NCBI RefSeq assembly: GCF_055900595.2 | Contig: NZ_CM148325.1 | Length of the DNA: 64,000 bases | Direction: 5' to 3' (one strand) | In this document: positions 13,040 to 48,153 of the stretch, piece by piece | Layout of the letters: each line of letters begins with the position of its first letter | How positions within the stretch are numbered: the first letter of the stretch is position 1 | Notes under the pieces: generated by a model | Database searches by the model: none | The model's input: only the letters and a program-made list of their open reading frames with translations | What the model was told of the DNA's origin: nothing | Made by a program: the position numbers and the translations under genes

Positions 13040-13097
13040 TCATTAATCGGCAATTTGGGTTGCCGCCAAATTGCTAATATCGAGTACGCATGCTTCA

Positions 13098-13198
<101 letters not shown>

Positions 13199-13238
13199 AT
13201 TTCTCGTTGGTCATCACTTTTGAAATCAAACTTGACGA

Positions 13239-18882: not shown

Positions 18883-18893
18883 ATTATCGAATA

Positions 18894-18924
18894 CCCGGCA
18901 GCCAGCTTCTGCCGGGTTCTTCGT
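18894..18924 (+). terminator. liv operon terminator
   Basis: CCCGGCAG-ccagcttc-CTGCCGGG hairpin followed by TTCTTCG. Confidence 0.7.
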
Positions 18925-19000
18925 CCGTATACAGACTTGTTTCAACTGACCGGGAGGATTAAAACCAGACCACTTATTTGCCACGGAAAGGTTCCCTCCC

Positions 19001-19747
19001 ATGCATTATGCCGTTGTCGTCATGCTTGAACTGCTTTGCTGTATTCACGCTTATCGCTCCGGACAAGAGCGATACTGGATTTTTATTATCTTCTGTTTTC
19101 CGGTGATTGGCTGCGTGGCGTATTTCGTCATGGTTATGCTGCCTGAAACGGGCGCTGACCGTCACGGGCGTACTTTGCTGATGCGCCTGCAGGACAAAAT
19201 CAGCCCGGAACGCCACCTGCACAAATTAACCGAAGAGCTGGCGATTGCCGAGACCAATCAAAACCATTATGCGTTAGCTAACGAACTGGCGCGCCTTGGG
19301 CGTTATCACGAAGCCGTTCCCCATTATCAGCAGGCGTTAAGCGGAATTTTCGCCCATGAAGCGGTAATGATGTTAAGCCTGGCGCAGGCGCAATTTGCTA
19401 TTCAGGAGTTCGCCGCCTGTCAGCAGATGCTGGAAGATGTGATGCGTTATAACCCCGATTTTCAGTCGGCAGACGGGCATTTGTTATTTGCCAGAGCGTT
19501 AGCCGCACAAGAAAAATACGCTGATGCGGAAAGCGAGTTTGAGGTGCTTGTTTCTTATTACCCCGGCCCGCAGGCACGTATTTACTATGCGGAAATGTTG
19601 GCGAAAATGAGTCGGTTACGTGAAGCCAACGAGCAGTATGTTGCTGTAGTTGATACGGCTAAACGCTCAAGACCTCATTATAGAAAACACCACCGGGAAT
19701 GGATTAAGACCGCCAATGAACGGCTGAAGCAGAGTGTGGTGCAATGA
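19001..19747 (+). CDS. Hypothetical protein: N-terminal PLDc_N-like two-helix membrane anchor plus TPR-like helical domain (248 aa)
   Basis: Long ORF with E. coli-like codon usage; N-terminus YWIFIIFCFPVIGCVAYFV resembles the N-terminal membrane motif of cardiolipin synthase; the rest is helical-repeat (TPR-like); SD-like GGAAAGG about 10 nt upstream; two hairpin terminators downstream. Confidence 0.7.
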   Translation: MHYAVVVMLELLCCIHAYRSGQERYWIFIIFCFPVIGCVAYFVMVMLPETGADRHGRTLLMRLQDKISPERHLHKLTEELAIAETNQNHYALANELARLGRYHEAVPHYQQALSGIFAHEAVMMLSLAQAQFAIQEFAACQQMLEDVMRYNPDFQSADGHLLFARALAAQEKYADAESEFEVLVSYYPGPQARIYYAEMLAKMSRLREANEQYVAVVDTAKRSRPHYRKHHREWIKTANERLKQSVVQ

Positions 19748-19816
19748 AAATCTTCTTTGCCGTTAGACCAGTGTCGCGGCAATCTTTTGTTAAAATTGAA
19801 AAATGTAGCTCTCATC

Positions 19817-19856
19817 GGGCAGCAAAACTGGACGCAGAATTTGCTGCCATTTTTGC
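19817..19856 (+). terminator. Hairpin plus T-tract downstream of the 248-aa ORF
   Basis: GGCAGCAAA ... TTTGCTGCC then ATTTTTG. Confidence 0.6.
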
Positions 19857-19876
19857 TCTTCATGGTAAGGAGTTCT

Positions 19877-19907
19877 GGCGATTAGCTGACCGTTAATCGC
19901 CTCTTTT
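19877..19907 (+). terminator. Second hairpin plus T-tract upstream of the ugpB promoter
   Basis: GGCGATTA-gctgaccg-TAATCGCC then TCTTTTC. Confidence 0.6.
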
Positions 19908-19970
19908 CAGTGCATTCTCGGGATATCCGTGCCCCATCTCCCAATTTCCCTCACCCACGCCGTCACCGCC

Positions 19971-27354: not shown

Positions 27355-27361
27355 TATCTTA

Positions 27362-27390
27362 AGCCCTCTCCCGGTAGGTGAGGGCTTTTA
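27362..27390. terminator. Hairpin terminator between convergent ggt and yhhY
   Basis: AGCCCTC ... GAGGGCT followed by TTTTAG. Confidence 0.7.
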
Positions 27391-27403
27391 GATTACAAAT
27401 TCT

Positions 27404-27892
27404 CTATTTCACCCGCGCCATATAATACGCATCGACATATTCACCGTTTCGTAATGCGTACTTCTTGCCAGTCCCTTCAATTTCAAAGCCGAATTTTTTA
27501 TAGACCTTAATTGCTGGCGCGTTATCAACGAACACCGTTAGTTCAATACGATCTACCCGCAACCAGTTGTCGCACATTTCAATCATCTCTCGCATCAGGG
27601 CGCTGGCGACGCCGCGGTTCTTCCAGCGGGAGTCGACACAGATACCAAAGTCGGCAACATGACTGCGGCGTGGGCGTTGCTGTACGTCAATAGTGAGATG
27701 ACCCACGACGTCTCCATCAATACAGGCGACGAGTTGCTTGATGCCGGGACGATCGGCGAGTCGCTCCTGCCACATTGGCTCTGACGGATGAGGCACCTGT
27801 AGCGTGTTGTAATACACCTCCGGTTGGGCGTGAATTTGCCTGATGGCCTCGTAATCCCGTGTTTCTGCGTGGCGTATTACTATCTCACTCAT
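27404..27892 (-). CDS. yhhY: GNAT-family N-acetyltransferase
   Basis: Start at internal Met MSEIVIRHAETRDYEAIRQIH; upstream part of the 188-aa ORF treated as non-coding. Confidence 0.88.
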   Translation of the reverse strand: MSEIVIRHAETRDYEAIRQIHAQPEVYYNTLQVPHPSEPMWQERLADRPGIKQLVACIDGDVVGHLTIDVQQRPRRSHVADFGICVDSRWKNRGVASALMREMIEMCDNWLRVDRIELTVFVDNAPAIKVYKKFGFEIEGTGKKYALRNGEYVDAYYMARVK

Positions 27893-27990
27893 TCCTTTGT
27901 CCTCTTTGGGGTAAATGTCCCTTTCAACATCATTGACTTTCAAATGCGAGTCAAATGCATTTTTTTGCAAAAAGTGTTGGACAAGTGCGA

Positions 27991-28009
27991 ATGAGAATGA
28001 TTATTATTG
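27991..28009 (+). promoter_or_regulatory. Fur box overlapping the ryhB promoter
   Basis: atgagaatgattattattg resembles the GATAATGATAATCATTATC consensus, immediately 5' of RyhB. Confidence 0.7.
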
Positions 28010-28013
28010 TCTC

Positions 28014-28104
28014 GCGATCAGGAAGACCCTCGCGGAGAACCTGAAAGCACGACATTGCTCACATTGCTTCCAGTATTACTTAGCCAGCCGGGTGCTGGCT
28101 TTTT
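28014..28104 (+). ncRNA. ryhB: RyhB small regulatory RNA (iron-sparing, Fur-repressed)
   Basis: Sequence GCGATCAGGAAGACCCTCGCGGAGAACCTGAAAGCACGACATTGCTCACATTGCTTCCAGTATTACTTAGCCAGCCGGGTGCTGGCTTTT recognised; ends in hairpin plus T8 terminator. Confidence 0.93.
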
Positions 28105-28225
28105 TTTTGACCTTTCGTTCTCAATTTATCCACGGGAAGTGCTTGTGTTTGTTATGCGCACTCCTGTAGGAACCACGTCCGCTTTGCGCTAAGGTGTAAC
28201 TAACCACCTTAAAAAGGACGAAATC

Positions 28226-29263
28226 ATGGTCATCAACTGCGCCTTTATTGGCTTTGGTAAAAGCACGACCCGTTACCATTTACCGTATGTACTTAACCGC
28301 AAGGATAGCTGGCATGTCGCGCATATTTTTCGCCGCCATGCGAAGCCGGAAGAACAGGCTCCCATTTATTCCCATATTCATTTCACCAGCGATCTCGACG
28401 AAGTGCTAAACGATCCTGACGTTAAGTTGATTGTCGTCTGCACCCACGCGGACAGCCACTTCGAGTACGCGAAGCGCGCGCTGGAAGCCGGGAAAAATGT
28501 GCTGGTCGAAAAACCGTTCACCCCGACACTTGCGCAGGCGAAAGAGCTGTTTGCGCTGGCGAAAAGTAAAGGGCTGACCGTCACGCCGTATCAGAATCGT
28601 CGCTTTGATTCCTGTTTTCTGACGGCGAAAAAAGCGATTGAAAGCGGCAAGCTGGGAGAGATTGTTGAAGTGGAAAGCCATTTTGACTATTACCGCCCAG
28701 TGGCAGAAACCAAACCTGGACTGCCGCAGGATGGCGCGTTCTATGGCCTTGGTGTGCATACGATGGACCAGATTATCTCGCTGTTCGGTCGCCCGGATCA
28801 CGTCGCTTATGACATCCGCAGCCTGCGTAATAAAGCCAATCCTGACGACACCTTTGAAGCGCAGCTATTTTATGGCGATCTAAAAGCCATCGTCAAAACC
28901 AGCCATCTGGTGAAAATCGATTATCCGAAATTTATCGTTCATGGGAAGAAAGGTTCGTTTATTAAATACGGTATCGACCAGCAGGAAACCAGCCTGAAGG
29001 CTAACATTATGCCCGGCGAACCGGGATTCGCAGCGGATGATTCGGTCGGTGTGCTGGAGTATGTCAATGACGAGGGCGTTACGGTCAGAGAAGAGATGAA
29101 GCCGGAGATGGGCGATTACGGACGCGTTTATGATGCGTTGTACCAAACCATCACCAACGGTGCACCAAATTACGTCAAGGAATCTGAAGTTCTTACCAAT
29201 CTGGAAATCCTTGAACGCGGTTTTGAGCAAGCCTCTCCCTCCACAGTGACTCTTGCGAAGTAA
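28226..29263 (+). CDS. yhhX: Gfo/Idh/MocA-family oxidoreductase
   Basis: 345 aa, N-terminal Rossmann motif, synteny. Confidence 0.9.
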   Translation: MVINCAFIGFGKSTTRYHLPYVLNRKDSWHVAHIFRRHAKPEEQAPIYSHIHFTSDLDEVLNDPDVKLIVVCTHADSHFEYAKRALEAGKNVLVEKPFTPTLAQAKELFALAKSKGLTVTPYQNRRFDSCFLTAKKAIESGKLGEIVEVESHFDYYRPVAETKPGLPQDGAFYGLGVHTMDQIISLFGRPDHVAYDIRSLRNKANPDDTFEAQLFYGDLKAIVKTSHLVKIDYPKFIVHGKKGSFIKYGIDQQETSLKANIMPGEPGFAADDSVGVLEYVNDEGVTVREEMKPEMGDYGRVYDALYQTITNGAPNYVKESEVLTNLEILERGFEQASPSTVTLAK

Positions 29264-45015: not shown

Positions 45016-46533
45016 ATGGAAAGAATAATGCAAAACAGAAAATGGATTTTGACCTCGCTGATAATGACTTTTTTCGGCATCCCCATACTGACGCAATTTT
45101 TGGCAGCGGTTATTGCCATGCTGGGGGCCGGGCTTGCCGCTATTCTTGAGGTTTGCAATTTTCTCTTTACGCCAACAATTTATCTTCTACTCAACGTCTT
45201 TATGCTGACGCTGGGGGCGATAATTCTATTTTTCTCTGGTCGCGTGTGGGCCGGTGATAGCGCACCAGAAAACAGAGAAATAGCCGTCTGGCGGCAATGC
45301 TTTTTTCTTTTACCTGCACTGTTAACTCTGGTTGGCTGGATAATCACGCTACATCTGGCAGATTATCAATTTCGCCAAATGGGAGCAGGTTGGTTGGCAG
45401 AGCTTATGCTCCCCTGGCTGGGAGTTTTGTTAGTCTCATTAGTCGGAGGTGAGTTCTGGTGGATAGTCATTATACCCGTTGGTGCGCATATTAGTTTTTC
45501 GCTGGGGTATGGCTGGCCGACCAGATATCCTTTAACCGGCACGTACGGGTTACGTTGCCGTAATTCCCTCCTGTTTATCCTTCTTATGCTTGGTTTTATC
45601 GCTGGTTATCAGGCTTATTTATATAAACAGCTTAATCCCGGCGTCGGTGTGCGTGAAAATATTGATACCTGGGCCTGGCGACCCGATAAACTCAATAATC
45701 AACTGACGCCACTGCGTGGTAAACCGCAAATTCAGTTTACACAAAACTGGCTGCGACTCGATGGTGCTACGGCGGCGTACCCAATTTATGCTTCTGCCTT
45801 TTATGCGTTGAGCGTTATACCGGAAGATTTCCACACCTGGGAATATCTGGAGAACTCTCGTACCCCCGATGCATATAACAGGATTGTTAAAGGTGATGCC
45901 GATATTATTTTTGTGGCGCAACCTTCCGGTGGGCAGAAAAAACGCGCAGAGGAATCGGGCGTCACTTTGAACTACACTCCTTTCGCCCGTGAAGCATTCG
46001 TTTTCATCGTCAATGCGGATAACCCGGTTAATTCCCTGACTGACCAACAGGTGCGTGACATCTTCAGTGGCGCAATTACCAACTGGCGTACTGTTGGCGG
46101 TAACGATCAGGAGATCCAGACCTGGCAACGCCCGGAAGACTCTGGCAGCCAGACAGTGATGCAATCGCAGGTCATGAAAAATGTCCGCATGATCTCGCCG
46201 CAGGAAACCGAAGTGGCAAGCATGATGGAGGGAATGATTAAAGTTGTTGCCGAATACCGTAATACAAACAACTCAATAGGCTACACCTTCCGCTATTACG
46301 CAACACAAATGAACGCTGACAAGAATATCAAATTAGTAGCGATTAACGGTATTGCACCGACTGCGGAAAATATTCGTAACGGCAAATATCCGTATATCGT
46401 CGATGCCTTTATGGTAACGCGGGAAAATACTACGTCAGAAACACAAAAACTGGTCGAATGGTTTTTAACGCCGCAGGGGCAGAGTCTGGTGGAAGATGTG
46501 GGTTATGTACCGTTGCATACAACAATGAAATAA
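45016..46533 (+). CDS. Hypothetical fusion protein: N-terminal polytopic membrane domain (about 215 aa) plus C-terminal substrate-binding-like domain (PstS-like)
   Basis: 505-aa ORF (alternative start at Met5, 45028, with better SD); 6 or more hydrophobic helices; C-terminal domain about 60% identical to the next ORF (IIFVAQPSGGQKKRAEE..., WQRPEDSGSQTVM). Confidence 0.8.
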   Translation: MERIMQNRKWILTSLIMTFFGIPILTQFLAAVIAMLGAGLAAILEVCNFLFTPTIYLLLNVFMLTLGAIILFFSGRVWAGDSAPENREIAVWRQCFFLLPALLTLVGWIITLHLADYQFRQMGAGWLAELMLPWLGVLLVSLVGGEFWWIVIIPVGAHISFSLGYGWPTRYPLTGTYGLRCRNSLLFILLMLGFIAGYQAYLYKQLNPGVGVRENIDTWAWRPDKLNNQLTPLRGKPQIQFTQNWLRLDGATAAYPIYASAFYALSVIPEDFHTWEYLENSRTPDAYNRIVKGDADIIFVAQPSGGQKKRAEESGVTLNYTPFAREAFVFIVNADNPVNSLTDQQVRDIFSGAITNWRTVGGNDQEIQTWQRPEDSGSQTVMQSQVMKNVRMISPQETEVASMMEGMIKVVAEYRNTNNSIGYTFRYYATQMNADKNIKLVAINGIAPTAENIRNGKYPYIVDAFMVTRENTTSETQKLVEWFLTPQGQSLVEDVGYVPLHTTMK

Positions 46534-46558
46534 CTTTTGAGAGAACGGAATCAGCGCG

Positions 46559-47551
46559 ATGAATAAATTCATAGGCGTTTTACTGCTAGGTGCGGTTTTA
46601 CTGGCGGGATGTGTCGACCGGGAAGGGTACTATAACAGCGTCAGGGAAGAAGAGAGTCATGGACTGACGTCTCTGCGGGGGCAACCTGAATTACGTTACA
46701 ACGATGATTGGTCAAGATGGCCGAGAGTGTACGGCGCTACAGCCTTATACCCGCTGTATGCCTCCGCGTATTATGAATTAGTACCCGAGCCAAAAGATAA
46801 GGATCGAACCTCGCTGGCCTGGCAGGCGTATGGTTTGCAACAAACCCGAACAGCTGAAGCCTACGATAGTCTGATCAAGGGTACCGCGACGGTTATTTTT
46901 GTTGCACAACCGTCGGAAGGACAGAAAAAACGTGCAGAAGAAGCAGGCGTTAAACTGAAATATACCGCGTTTGCCCGCGAAGCCTTTGTCTTTATCGTTG
47001 ATATCAAAAACCCGGTTAATTCACTTAGCGAACAGCAGGTCAAAGACATTTTTAGCGGTAAAGTGAGTCGCTGGAATAAAGTGGGCGGCGGTGACGAAAG
47101 TATAAAAGTCTGGCAGCGGCCAGAAGATTCTGGAAGCCAAACGGTTATGAAGGGACTGGTTATGCAAGATACTCCAATGCTGCCAGCCAAAAAATCCACT
47201 GTTATCGATCTTATGGGCGGTTTAATTACCGAAGTCGCCGACTACAAAAATACACCATCTTCTATTGGATACACTTTCCACTATTACGTCACACGTATGA
47301 ATGACAATATGCTCAAAATGCGCAAACAGATCAAACTGCTGGCTATAAATGGCGTTGCACCTACAGAGGAAAATATCCGTAACGGCACTTATCCGTACAT
47401 GATTGATGCTTATATGGTGACGCACGAAACCCCTACGCTGGAAACGCAGAAATTCGTCGACTGGTTTTTAAGCCCGCAGGGACAGCAATTGGTAGAGGAT
47501 GTGGGGTATGTGCCGATTCATGACGCATCATACGAATCATCAGTGCAATAA
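46559..47551 (+). CDS. Hypothetical lipoprotein with substrate-binding-like domain (paralogue of the preceding C-terminal domain)
   Basis: 330 aa; signal peptide with lipobox LLAGC (Cys18); VIFVAQPSEGQKKRAEE and WQRPEDSGSQTVM motifs shared with the 505-aa ORF. Confidence 0.85.
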   Translation: MNKFIGVLLLGAVLLAGCVDREGYYNSVREEESHGLTSLRGQPELRYNDDWSRWPRVYGATALYPLYASAYYELVPEPKDKDRTSLAWQAYGLQQTRTAEAYDSLIKGTATVIFVAQPSEGQKKRAEEAGVKLKYTAFAREAFVFIVDIKNPVNSLSEQQVKDIFSGKVSRWNKVGGGDESIKVWQRPEDSGSQTVMKGLVMQDTPMLPAKKSTVIDLMGGLITEVADYKNTPSSIGYTFHYYVTRMNDNMLKMRKQIKLLAINGVAPTEENIRNGTYPYMIDAYMVTHETPTLETQKFVDWFLSPQGQQLVEDVGYVPIHDASYESSVQ

Positions 47552-48153
47552 TGATGAATAAAATCAGACTTTATATTCCTCCGTTAATTCTTGGTTTTGT
47601 TATTGTGCCGTTGTTGGTGTGGCCGACGGTGGTTGCGCTGGCTGCTTCTGTTATCACGCTGAGTTTTCTGGGAGAGATACTGTTCTCTATCCCGCTCATG
47701 ATCAGGCGTATTTCACTTCTGCAATTACAACTATGGTTATCGGCTGAATATGCGCTTTTCTGCTGTGCAATGGTGGGCGTTGGTTGGCAATTTGCTCGTA
47801 TAACTCAATCTGAATTGAAAAGCAGACTGCATTGTTGGCTGGTATTTGCACCAGTTTATTTCTGGTTGCTCCTGTGGAATATCATTTTCTATGTCGCGCC
47901 AGCGAATATTGCGTTGCTGGAGAATATGCGCAGTTTCTTTCTGACAGTTGTCTGGCTCCCACTAAATTTTTCGCCATTTTGGTCTCAACCGTGGATTGAC
48001 TTTGTCGGTCCAATAAGCGCACAGCTTGGTTTTGCGTTGGGATATTATTGCCAGTGGCGTAGCAAAAATAGAAGCCAGATACGGAAGTGGAGTGAGTGGG
48101 GAACGTGCCTGAGTTTTGTTACGTTGGGTATGATGGCGTGGGCTTTGCGGTAA
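47551..48153 (+). CDS. Hypothetical polytopic membrane protein (200 aa)
   Basis: Start overlaps the preceding stop (TAATG); 5-6 hydrophobic helices; loosely resembles the N-terminal domain of the 505-aa ORF. Confidence 0.7.
   Translation: MMNKIRLYIPPLILGFVIVPLLVWPTVVALAASVITLSFLGEILFSIPLMIRRISLLQLQLWLSAEYALFCCAMVGVGWQFARITQSELKSRLHCWLVFAPVYFWLLLWNIIFYVAPANIALLENMRSFFLTVVWLPLNFSPFWSQPWIDFVGPISAQLGFALGYYCQWRSKNRSQIRKWSEWGTCLSFVTLGMMAWALR

Follow-up and report, generated by a model that had tools for sequence, protein, structure and literature searches.

Positions 28014-28108 on the plus strand of the 64,000-nucleotide stretch of DNA analyzed here (hereafter, the window) are, with near certainty, the chromosomal ryhB gene of an Escherichia coli strain, which encodes the Fur-repressed, Hfq-dependent, iron-sparing small RNA RyhB. 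This is a textbook element, described as known rather than novel in a preliminary description of the locus, and indeed already annotated in K-12; nothing in the knowledge of RyhB is changed by its presence here. RyhB is induced by iron starvation and shuts down non-essential iron-using proteins. The placement of the gene in the gap between yhhY and yhhX was confirmed, with the flanking genes on the minus and plus strands, respectively:

27404-27892, minus strand: yhhY, GNAT N-acetyltransferase (RefSeq; Pfam Acetyltransf_1, E = 2.7e-19), divergent from ryhB
28014-28108, plus strand: ryhB, small RNA RyhB, 95 nt according to the K-12 annotation and approximately 90 nt when mature (K-12 identity and RF00057)
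28226-29263, plus strand: yhhX, GFO/IDH/MocA-family oxidoreductase (RefSeq and Pfam), 117 nt downstream of the ryhB terminator on the same strand

Identification of ryhB

When the whole window was scanned with Rfam 15 at gathering thresholds, RF00057 (RyhB) was the sole family returned. The match, at 28043-28107 on the plus strand, scored 83.1 bits (E = 3.6e-14) against a gathering score of 55, and covered positions 1-67 of the 67-position model without truncation. Because this model spans just the 3' two-thirds of the RNA, the full gene was compared with annotated genomes. The K-12 MG1655 annotation places a 95-nt ncRNA, ryhB (b4451), between yhhX and yhhY, and this RNA corresponds to window positions 28014-28108. 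In a base-by-base alignment, no mismatch to the K-12 gene was found in the promoter, the Fur box, the target-pairing core or the terminator. Identity to K-12 is 100% over the entire 218 nt from 27893 to 28110, which take in the yhhY start codon, the promoter, the Fur box, the RNA and the two bases that follow the T run. All five differences from K-12 in the yhhY-yhhX gap fall downstream of 28110, the nearest being 3 nt beyond that run. Four of them, three substitutions and a 1-bp indel, lie in the tail of a 61-aa open reading frame (ORF) considered below; the fifth is a substitution farther along the ryhB-yhhX spacer. As the window overall is only 94.8-96.7% identical to K-12 (96.7% in the 17.8-kb alignment block enclosing ryhB), the 218 identical bases form a clear island of constraint.

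The preliminary description, made from the letters alone, had called a RyhB sRNA at 28014-28104 and had named two checks, an Rfam covariance-model search and an alignment to K-12 ryhB. Both came out in its favor: the RF00057 score is far above threshold, and the alignment is free of mismatches, including in the conserved pairing region. The proposed start, 28014, is exactly the annotated K-12 5' end. The proposed end, 28104, falls inside the T run, and the K-12 annotation continues to 28108. The 90-nt form of RyhB given in the literature would put the 3' end at 28103.

The present locus shares with K-12 RyhB (b4451; RF00057) the promoter, the Fur box, all 95 nt of the RNA, the terminator, and the flanking genes with their orientations. 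Beyond yhhY, K-12 carries a 3.45-kb yhhZ-yrhA::IS1E-yrhD-yrhB segment that the present strain lacks. From the sequence identity, we infer that ryhB in the present strain has the functional properties established for K-12.

The window contains one copy of ryhB, and the median per E. coli genome is likewise one. Of 5426 complete E. coli genomes, 5424 contain a match to a 351-nt query around the site, and in each of them the match lies between yhhY and yhhX. The promoter and RNA (27978-28108) were at least 99% identical in 5413 of these 5424 genomes. The adjoining 117-nt spacer reached that level in just nine genomes, was 90-95% identical in 721, and was undetectable in 54.

Across genera, exact matches to the 28-nt target-pairing core of the RNA (28047-28074) were sought in one genome per species. 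This search returned 120 loci, 110 of which had enough flanking sequence to be analyzed; the invariance of the core over these 110 loci is by construction, the core having been the search pattern. Matches were found in Escherichia, Citrobacter, Enterobacter, Klebsiella, Yersinia, Serratia, Photorhabdus, Pantoea, Aeromonas, Photobacterium and additional genera, and extend to the Vibrionaceae.

The ryhB promoter and Fur box

Upstream of the RNA, a promoter and an overlapping Fur box were located:

27978-27983, plus strand: -35 element of the ryhB promoter, TGGACA (promoter scan)
28002-28007, plus strand: -10 element of the ryhB promoter, TATTAT (promoter scan), ending 7 nt before the annotated RNA 5' end
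27993-28011, no strand assigned: Fur box GAGAATGATTATTATTGTC, matching 16 of 19 positions of the consensus, overlapping the -10 element and ending 3 nt before the transcription start

In a consensus scan of 27850-28260, TGGACA-18-TATTAT was the only sigma-70-like site, with 10 of 12 matches and an 18-nt spacer. The -35 position is kept as TTGGAC, TTTACA or TAGACA over 41 aligned loci.

A Fur-box-like, AT-rich repeat over the promoter had been noticed in the preliminary description, and the comparison at 27993-28011 with the 19-bp Fur consensus, GATAATGATAATCATTATC, supports that observation. It is the only site in the 64 kb that departs from the consensus at no more than three positions; 0.03 such sites were expected from shuffled sequence. 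In 107 of the 110 loci, the 90 nt preceding the core include a Fur box that matches at 14 or more of the 19 positions, and the best match averaged 15.5 in this upstream DNA versus 9.6 in downstream control DNA of equal length. Further, the block AAGTGCGAATGAkAATGATTATTATTG is nearly invariant in the alignment of divergent control regions. In K-12, where the sequence is the same, a 25.2-bit Fur cluster centered at -15 of ryhB was described and its binding confirmed by gel shift (PMC2189734). We infer from the gel shift on this identical sequence that Fur also binds 27993-28011 in the present strain.

Organization and conservation of the RNA

Within the RNA, the following segments were distinguished:

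28014-28033, plus strand: predicted 5' stem-loop of RyhB (minimum free energy [MFE] fold, nt 1-4 paired with nt 17-20)
28047-28074, plus strand: target-pairing core GCACGACAUUGCUCACAUUGCUUCCAGU (exact 28-nt match in the 120 loci)
28051-28059, plus strand: GACAUUGCU, nt 38-46 of RyhB, a perfect complement to sodB mRNA from -4 to +5, across the start codon AUG
28075-28081, plus strand: A/U-rich single-stranded linker AUUACUU between the core and the terminator (unpaired in the Rfam consensus structure and in the MFE fold)
28082-28108, plus strand: Rho-independent terminator, with an AGCCAGC-CGGGU-GCUGGCU stem-loop at 28082-28100 and a U tail at 28101-28108 (terminator scan)

The core contains an imperfect tandem 9-mer, ACAUUGCUC/ACAUUGCUU, at 28052-28069, and spans the uppercase, that is, the most conserved, positions of the Rfam consensus. 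The 5' stem-loop segment is the part of the RNA that varies most between genera, and the A/U linker differs in length by 1-3 nt between them.

In the MFE fold, the 5' stem-loop is followed by a central hairpin presenting the conserved core, the unpaired A/U linker, and the terminator. The energy of the whole-RNA fold, -24.1 kcal/mol, was no better than that of shuffled sequences (z = -0.67; 48 of 200 shuffles were equally stable). We therefore did not take fold energy as evidence of structure, and relied instead on the covariance-model score and on covariation in the terminator. The terminator stem has 7 bp, five of them G-C pairs, and a loop of 5, and is followed by TTTTTTTT. Over 104 distinct sequences, 94.4% of the cells of this helix are paired, and five of the seven pairs changed on both sides, including changes from A-U to G-C, from A-U to C-G and from C-G to U-A. 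When the 3' partner was slid by 1-3 columns, pairing of the whole tested structure dropped from 97% to 27-46%. The T tail stays in register while the stem bases change. The six pairs of the two Rfam core hairpins are invariant by construction, because the loci were collected with the exact 28-nt core as the search key.

The preliminary description had characterized the 3' end as a strong hairpin plus a T8 terminator, an account that agrees with the 7-bp stem at 28082-28100 and the eight T after it. Nine consecutive T (28100-28108) are present in the DNA, but the first of these pairs with A28082, so that "hairpin plus T8" is fair wording. Another terminator-like hairpin, at 28131-28147, was evaluated as a possible back-up to the first and rejected: it has three G-C pairs and an interrupted T tail, and as it is weak, contains the K-12 indel and lies in a variable spacer, it is probably a chance match.

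RyhB paralogues in other Enterobacterales and the tandem copies of Vibrionaceae have the same 28-nt core as the present gene, and in most of them a Fur box also lies upstream and a terminator hairpin and U tail occur in the same register. They differ from the present ryhB in the 5' stem-loop, the linker and the sequence of the stem, and the Vibrionaceae versions run well past the core before termination. Two copies per genome occur in, for example, Yersinia, Photorhabdus, Serratia, Pantoea and Pectobacterium, in contrast to the one copy in the window. PrrF1 and PrrF2 of Pseudomonas (RF00444) are functional analogues of RyhB, being Fur-repressed sRNAs of the iron-sparing response. They share this type of function with RyhB, but the present locus is not a member of RF00444: a permissive rescan of the gap gave 21.3 bits (E = 0.5) against a gathering score of 90.

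Proposed mode of action

The arrangement of these elements suggests how the locus would operate. With iron available, Fe2+-Fur would occupy the box at 27993-28011; as the box lies over the -10 element and extends to 3 nt before the start site, RNA polymerase would be shut out. When iron is scarce, Fur would be released and transcription would begin at 28014 and end mostly at 28082-28108, yielding an RNA of approximately 90 nt; expression in this strain is predicted from the sequence. According to the literature, the 3' U tail and the A/U-rich linker would then bind Hfq. Hfq binding needs the terminal 3' U tail, and a fraction of ryhB transcripts passes the terminator (PMC4509938). The single-stranded core (28047-28074) would pair with mRNAs for dispensable iron proteins at their translation-initiation regions. 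In the case of sodB, our computed complementarity predicts that nt 38-46 pair with -4 to +5. The expected outcome, as known from the literature, would be a block to ribosome binding followed by decay of the mRNA.

The sodB complementarity was computed with the K-12 gene, as sodB of the present strain lies outside the window. Between RyhB and K-12 sodB from -60 to +30, no perfect complement is longer than the 9-nt GACAUUGCU, a length that 39 of 2000 shuffled targets also reach. The test recovers the start-codon site; the length of the match alone is only modestly significant. A whole-molecule RNAduplex prediction between RyhB and the same sodB region was set aside, as the duplex was unrealistically long and its energy (-34.8 kcal/mol) set it only marginally apart from shuffled targets, 14 of 1000 of which were as good.

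Open reading frames overlapping ryhB

Translated products attributed to this DNA, by gene callers and by a published study, include the following:

28007-28192, plus strand: 61-aa ORF with a TTG start, a spurious frame that is open here and is not a gene
28054-28083, plus strand: published "RyhP" frame, with an AUU start, the peptide MAHIASSIT and a UAG stop (mapped from PMC5331693)

The preliminary description had dismissed the 61-aa ORF as not a protein, and our analysis leads to the same conclusion: it is a chance open frame and a recurrent gene-caller artefact. Its TTG (28007) precedes the annotated RNA 5' end (28014) by 7 nt, no Shine-Dalgarno motif is present in the sequence upstream of that TTG, gaatgattattat, and 28 of the 61 codons lie past the intrinsic terminator, whose helix covaries. 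The frame is also not conserved. A 1-bp indel at window position 28137 gives K-12 a frame of 53 aa with another C-terminus, and in four Escherichia (the present strain, K-12, another E. coli and E. albertii), the frame measures 61, 53, 62 and 78 aa, respectively, with unrelated tails. At 19 syntenic loci outside Escherichia (YhhX 79-93% identical), it has 9-50 codons or no start before a stop, and at 17 of the 19 it stops at +35, inside the RNA and before the terminator. Over the 110 loci, stop positions are scattered, and a start codon at the E. coli position (-40) occurs in just 13. Even within E. coli, the tail of the ORF falls in a spacer that varies freely.

It could nevertheless be argued that the 61-aa ORF, or an 84-aa ORF (27915-28169) that occupies another frame of the same DNA and is mutually exclusive with it, is a true Escherichia-specific small-protein gene lying over ryhB. 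Both ORFs are open in the present strain, part of the ryhB transcripts pass the terminator (PMC4509938), and both have been deposited in many GenBank records of Escherichia and Shigella, the exact 61-aa sequence as a "hypothetical protein" on at least 1000 contigs. These deposits mark the 61-aa ORF as a recurrent artefact rather than as a frame that gene callers ignore. Against such a gene stand the observations above on the 61-aa frame, together with the fact that the two deposited ORFs are in different frames and that current RefSeq annotates no CDS over either. No Pfam family was found for either ORF (for the 61-aa ORF, at E values up to 1). The 84-aa ORF was rejected in its own right, as it starts in the yhhY-ryhB promoter region and measures 84 aa here versus 95 in K-12. 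We give the small-protein reading practically no credence. An antisense 34-aa ORF (27951-28055) was also considered as a gene and rejected. With the exception of three members of the 53-aa cluster, the exact-sequence clusters of these ORFs comprise just "hypothetical protein" entries from Escherichia and Shigella; those three (JGI/IMG, Pseudomonas and Staphylococcus) look unrelated.

RyhP lies in a third frame, and is thus not the ORF dismissed in the preliminary description. SgrS encodes SgrT, a conserved, canonically initiated protein of 43 aa, and by analogy ryhB could be a dual-function RNA, also translated from the AUU into a nonapeptide that itself affects growth under iron limitation. 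Neuhaus et al. (2017) reported ribosome footprints on ryhB in EHEC and an effect of plasmid-expressed RyhP on competitive growth relative to stop-codon controls (PMC5331693). In addition, the RyhP ORF is intact here, the sequence being the same as in K-12, and a weak GGAGAA lies upstream of the frame at 28034-28039. The published phenotype, however, comes from overexpression, and the start codon is non-canonical. RyhP codons 1-7 lie within the core, which is invariant for RNA pairing, so their conservation is uninformative on coding. Over the 110 loci, we found no conservation of the frame beyond the RNA constraint: it has nine codons in just 33, ranges from 7 to more than 81 codons, and ends in IT, VF, II or other residues. 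Depending on a 1-nt difference in the length of the A/U linker, the conserved TAG ends either the RyhP frame or the 61-aa frame, and in neighboring genera such a change shifts it from the former to the latter. Unlike SgrS with its conserved SgrT ORF, ryhB has no conserved frame running through it. The comparative data thus lend no support to RyhP, whose putative translation in E. coli is addressed by the published RIBOseq and overexpression data (PMC5331693), and we judge a dual function for ryhB to be very unlikely.

Neighboring genes and transcriptional readthrough

The two neighbors of ryhB differ in how closely they are associated with it. In 49 of 50 loci, the divergent yhhY begins 142-212 nt upstream of the core, and this holds even where YhhY is as little as 47% identical. 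Where yhhX is present, it lies downstream of ryhB on the same strand in every locus, at a distance of 73-1463 nt, but it is not found downstream of ryhB outside Enterobacteriaceae proper. The conserved neighbor of ryhB is therefore yhhY rather than yhhX, and the same neighbor pattern was noted in a study of Klebsiella (PMC3423075). The conserved AGTCAA at 27949-27954 reads TTGACT on the yhhY strand, and this TTGACT (27954-27949, minus strand) is a candidate -35 element for yhhY.

Readthrough into yhhX would add to, rather than replace, the identification of the locus as ryhB: the gene may serve both as a Fur-controlled promoter and as a leaky attenuator of a ryhB-yhhX operon, as in sgrS-setA. 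SgrS is Hfq-dependent, with a leaky terminator and a downstream gene on the same strand, and is the model for both the co-transcription and the dual-function readings (PMC4509938). A crude consensus scan, which may miss weak promoters or those of other sigma factors, found no sigma-70-like promoter in the ryhB-yhhX spacer (28109-28225). Substantial readthrough of the ryhB terminator has been measured, and co-transcription of yhhX was proposed on that basis (PMC4509938). In RNA-seq, yhhX was upregulated in low iron in the wild type, and this response was lost upon deletion of the ryhB promoter (PMC8896160); yhhX was also originally recovered by in vivo selection for Fur sites (PMC2189734). Conversely, Morita et al. 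state that co-transcription still awaits direct demonstration, and that inducing stress makes termination more efficient (PMC4509938). Further, the variable ryhB-yhhX distance and the absence of yhhX downstream of ryhB outside Enterobacteriaceae proper, also noted for Klebsiella (PMC3423075), argue that the link is not a conserved design feature. Together, the spacer without a promoter-like site and the published RNA-seq make readthrough into yhhX plausible, and we hold the operon to be a real possibility that falls somewhat short of probable.

A broader version would make ryhB the hub of a small iron-starvation module, in which its promoter also drives yhhX and its control region is coupled to yhhY. 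The yhhX half of this idea has already been proposed in the literature; the yhhY half is an observation of synteny and spacing, the near-constant yhhY spacing across Enterobacterales hinting that yhhY expression may be coupled to the ryhB/Fur control region. We regard the module as a whole as rather unlikely. Within the literature collection searched, no paper was found that mentions YhhY together with microcin C or another aminoacyl-nucleotide antibiotic.

Implications for annotation

The identification of this locus as ryhB matters mainly for annotation quality. In the RefSeq/PGAP records of the genomes sampled, including that of the present strain, ryhB is unannotated, and in older GenBank submissions the gap is occupied by one or the other of two "hypothetical proteins" that exclude each other. 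The yhhY-yhhX gap instead holds a heavily studied regulatory RNA and codes for no protein. Recognizing ryhB takes a false protein out of the catalogue and accounts for the perfect conservation of 218 nt of intergenic DNA amid a 3-5% divergence from K-12.

Conservation of the yhhY-ryhB control region

The gene for the small RNA RyhB lies between yhhY and yhhX, and the upstream interval that it shares with yhhY contains two short sequence features:

27404-27892, minus strand, yhhY
27893-28013, yhhY-ryhB control region
27940-27958, direct repeat, TCAAATGC-gag-TCAAATGC
27949-27954, AGTCAA motif
28014-28108, plus strand, ryhB
28047-28074, RyhB core (the 28-nt target-pairing segment)
28226-29263, plus strand, yhhX

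We compared this arrangement with ryhB loci from other genomes (L004-L120). A divergent layout, with 142-212 nt between the yhhY ATG and the RyhB core, is kept in 49 of 50 loci spanning the Enterobacterales, and is retained even where YhhY identity is as low as 47%. In the same set, the distance between ryhB and yhhX varies from 73 to 1463 nt, or the link is absent. Within the control region, AGTCAA is conserved across genera and is overlapped by the direct repeat; read on the yhhY strand it is TTGACT, making it a candidate -35 for yhhY.

On the other side of ryhB, the spacer preceding yhhX holds a weak second terminator-like hairpin (28131-28147; CACGGGAAGTGCTTGTG then TTTGTTAT). We considered it as a second terminator, but it is probably a chance match, as a 1-bp indel relative to K-12 falls within it and the stretch is fast-evolving.

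Annotation of the yhhY-yhhX gap is inconsistent among public records. The RefSeq/PGAP records sampled annotate neither ryhB nor any CDS there, whereas many GenBank submissions carry a "hypothetical protein" that corresponds to either the 61-aa ORF (28007-28192) or the overlapping 84-aa ORF (27915-28169).

RyhB copies and variants in other genomes

Among 5424 complete E. coli genomes, one, 23AR0151 (NZ_CP195448.1; L126:61-200), carries a 9-nt tandem duplication within the pairing core. Its core contains three copies of the 9-mer ACATTGCTC, which is present in the window as an imperfect tandem pair (28052-28069). Beyond E. coli, the exact core occurs twice, on different contigs, in many genera (loci L003-L122), namely Yersinia, Photorhabdus, Serratia, Pantoea, Pectobacterium, Brenneria, Mixta, Acerihabitans, and Pluralibacter; in Salinivibrio the two copies are in tandem, approximately 300 nt apart (L061, L081).

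Comparison of the window with K-12

Several intergenic segments differ in content from E. coli K-12 MG1655. The convergent genes ggt and yhhY are separated by just a 46-bp spacer with a hairpin (27355-27400; aagccctc...gagggctttt), whereas K-12 has 3.45 kb at this position, comprising yhhZ (putative endonuclease), yrhA split by IS1E, yrhD, and yrhB. Conversely, K-12 lacks 2.8 kb that this strain carries between glpD and glgP (45016-48153), a block with three ORFs on the same strand; of this, K-12 retains the remnant yzgL alone. Two further intervals are longer than in K-12: livF-ugpB (18883-19923; approximately 1 kb versus approximately 0.2 kb) and tusA-zntA (2336-2904; 569 bp versus approximately 115 bp).

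ORFs in segments that differ from K-12
glpD-glgP, ORF 1: 505 aa; membrane N-terminus and PBP_like_2
glpD-glgP, ORF 2: 330 aa; lipoprotein-like, PBP_like_2
glpD-glgP, ORF 3: 200 aa; hydrophobic, no Pfam match
livF-ugpB, 19001-19747: 248 aa; TPR repeats, with a short membrane segment of PLDc_N type at the N-terminus
tusA-zntA, 2559-2867: 102 aa; very hydrophobic, no Pfam match

A 123-nt stretch (13094-13216) is 82% identical to an unrelated K-12 position near glpD/yzgL (3563563-3563684), and is probably a dispersed intergenic repeat. No tRNA genes were found in window 1-64000.

Overall, the window (1-64000) is collinear with K-12 3,547,830-3,611,094 in reverse orientation, at an identity of only 94.8-96.7%. 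When a 351-nt sequence around ryhB was used as the query, only 12 of 5424 E. coli genomes were at least 99% identical; the canine isolate Z0117EC0005 matches the window exactly in the ryhB region. Together, the window-wide identity and the scarcity of close matches to the query suggest that the lineage of this strain is rather far from K-12.
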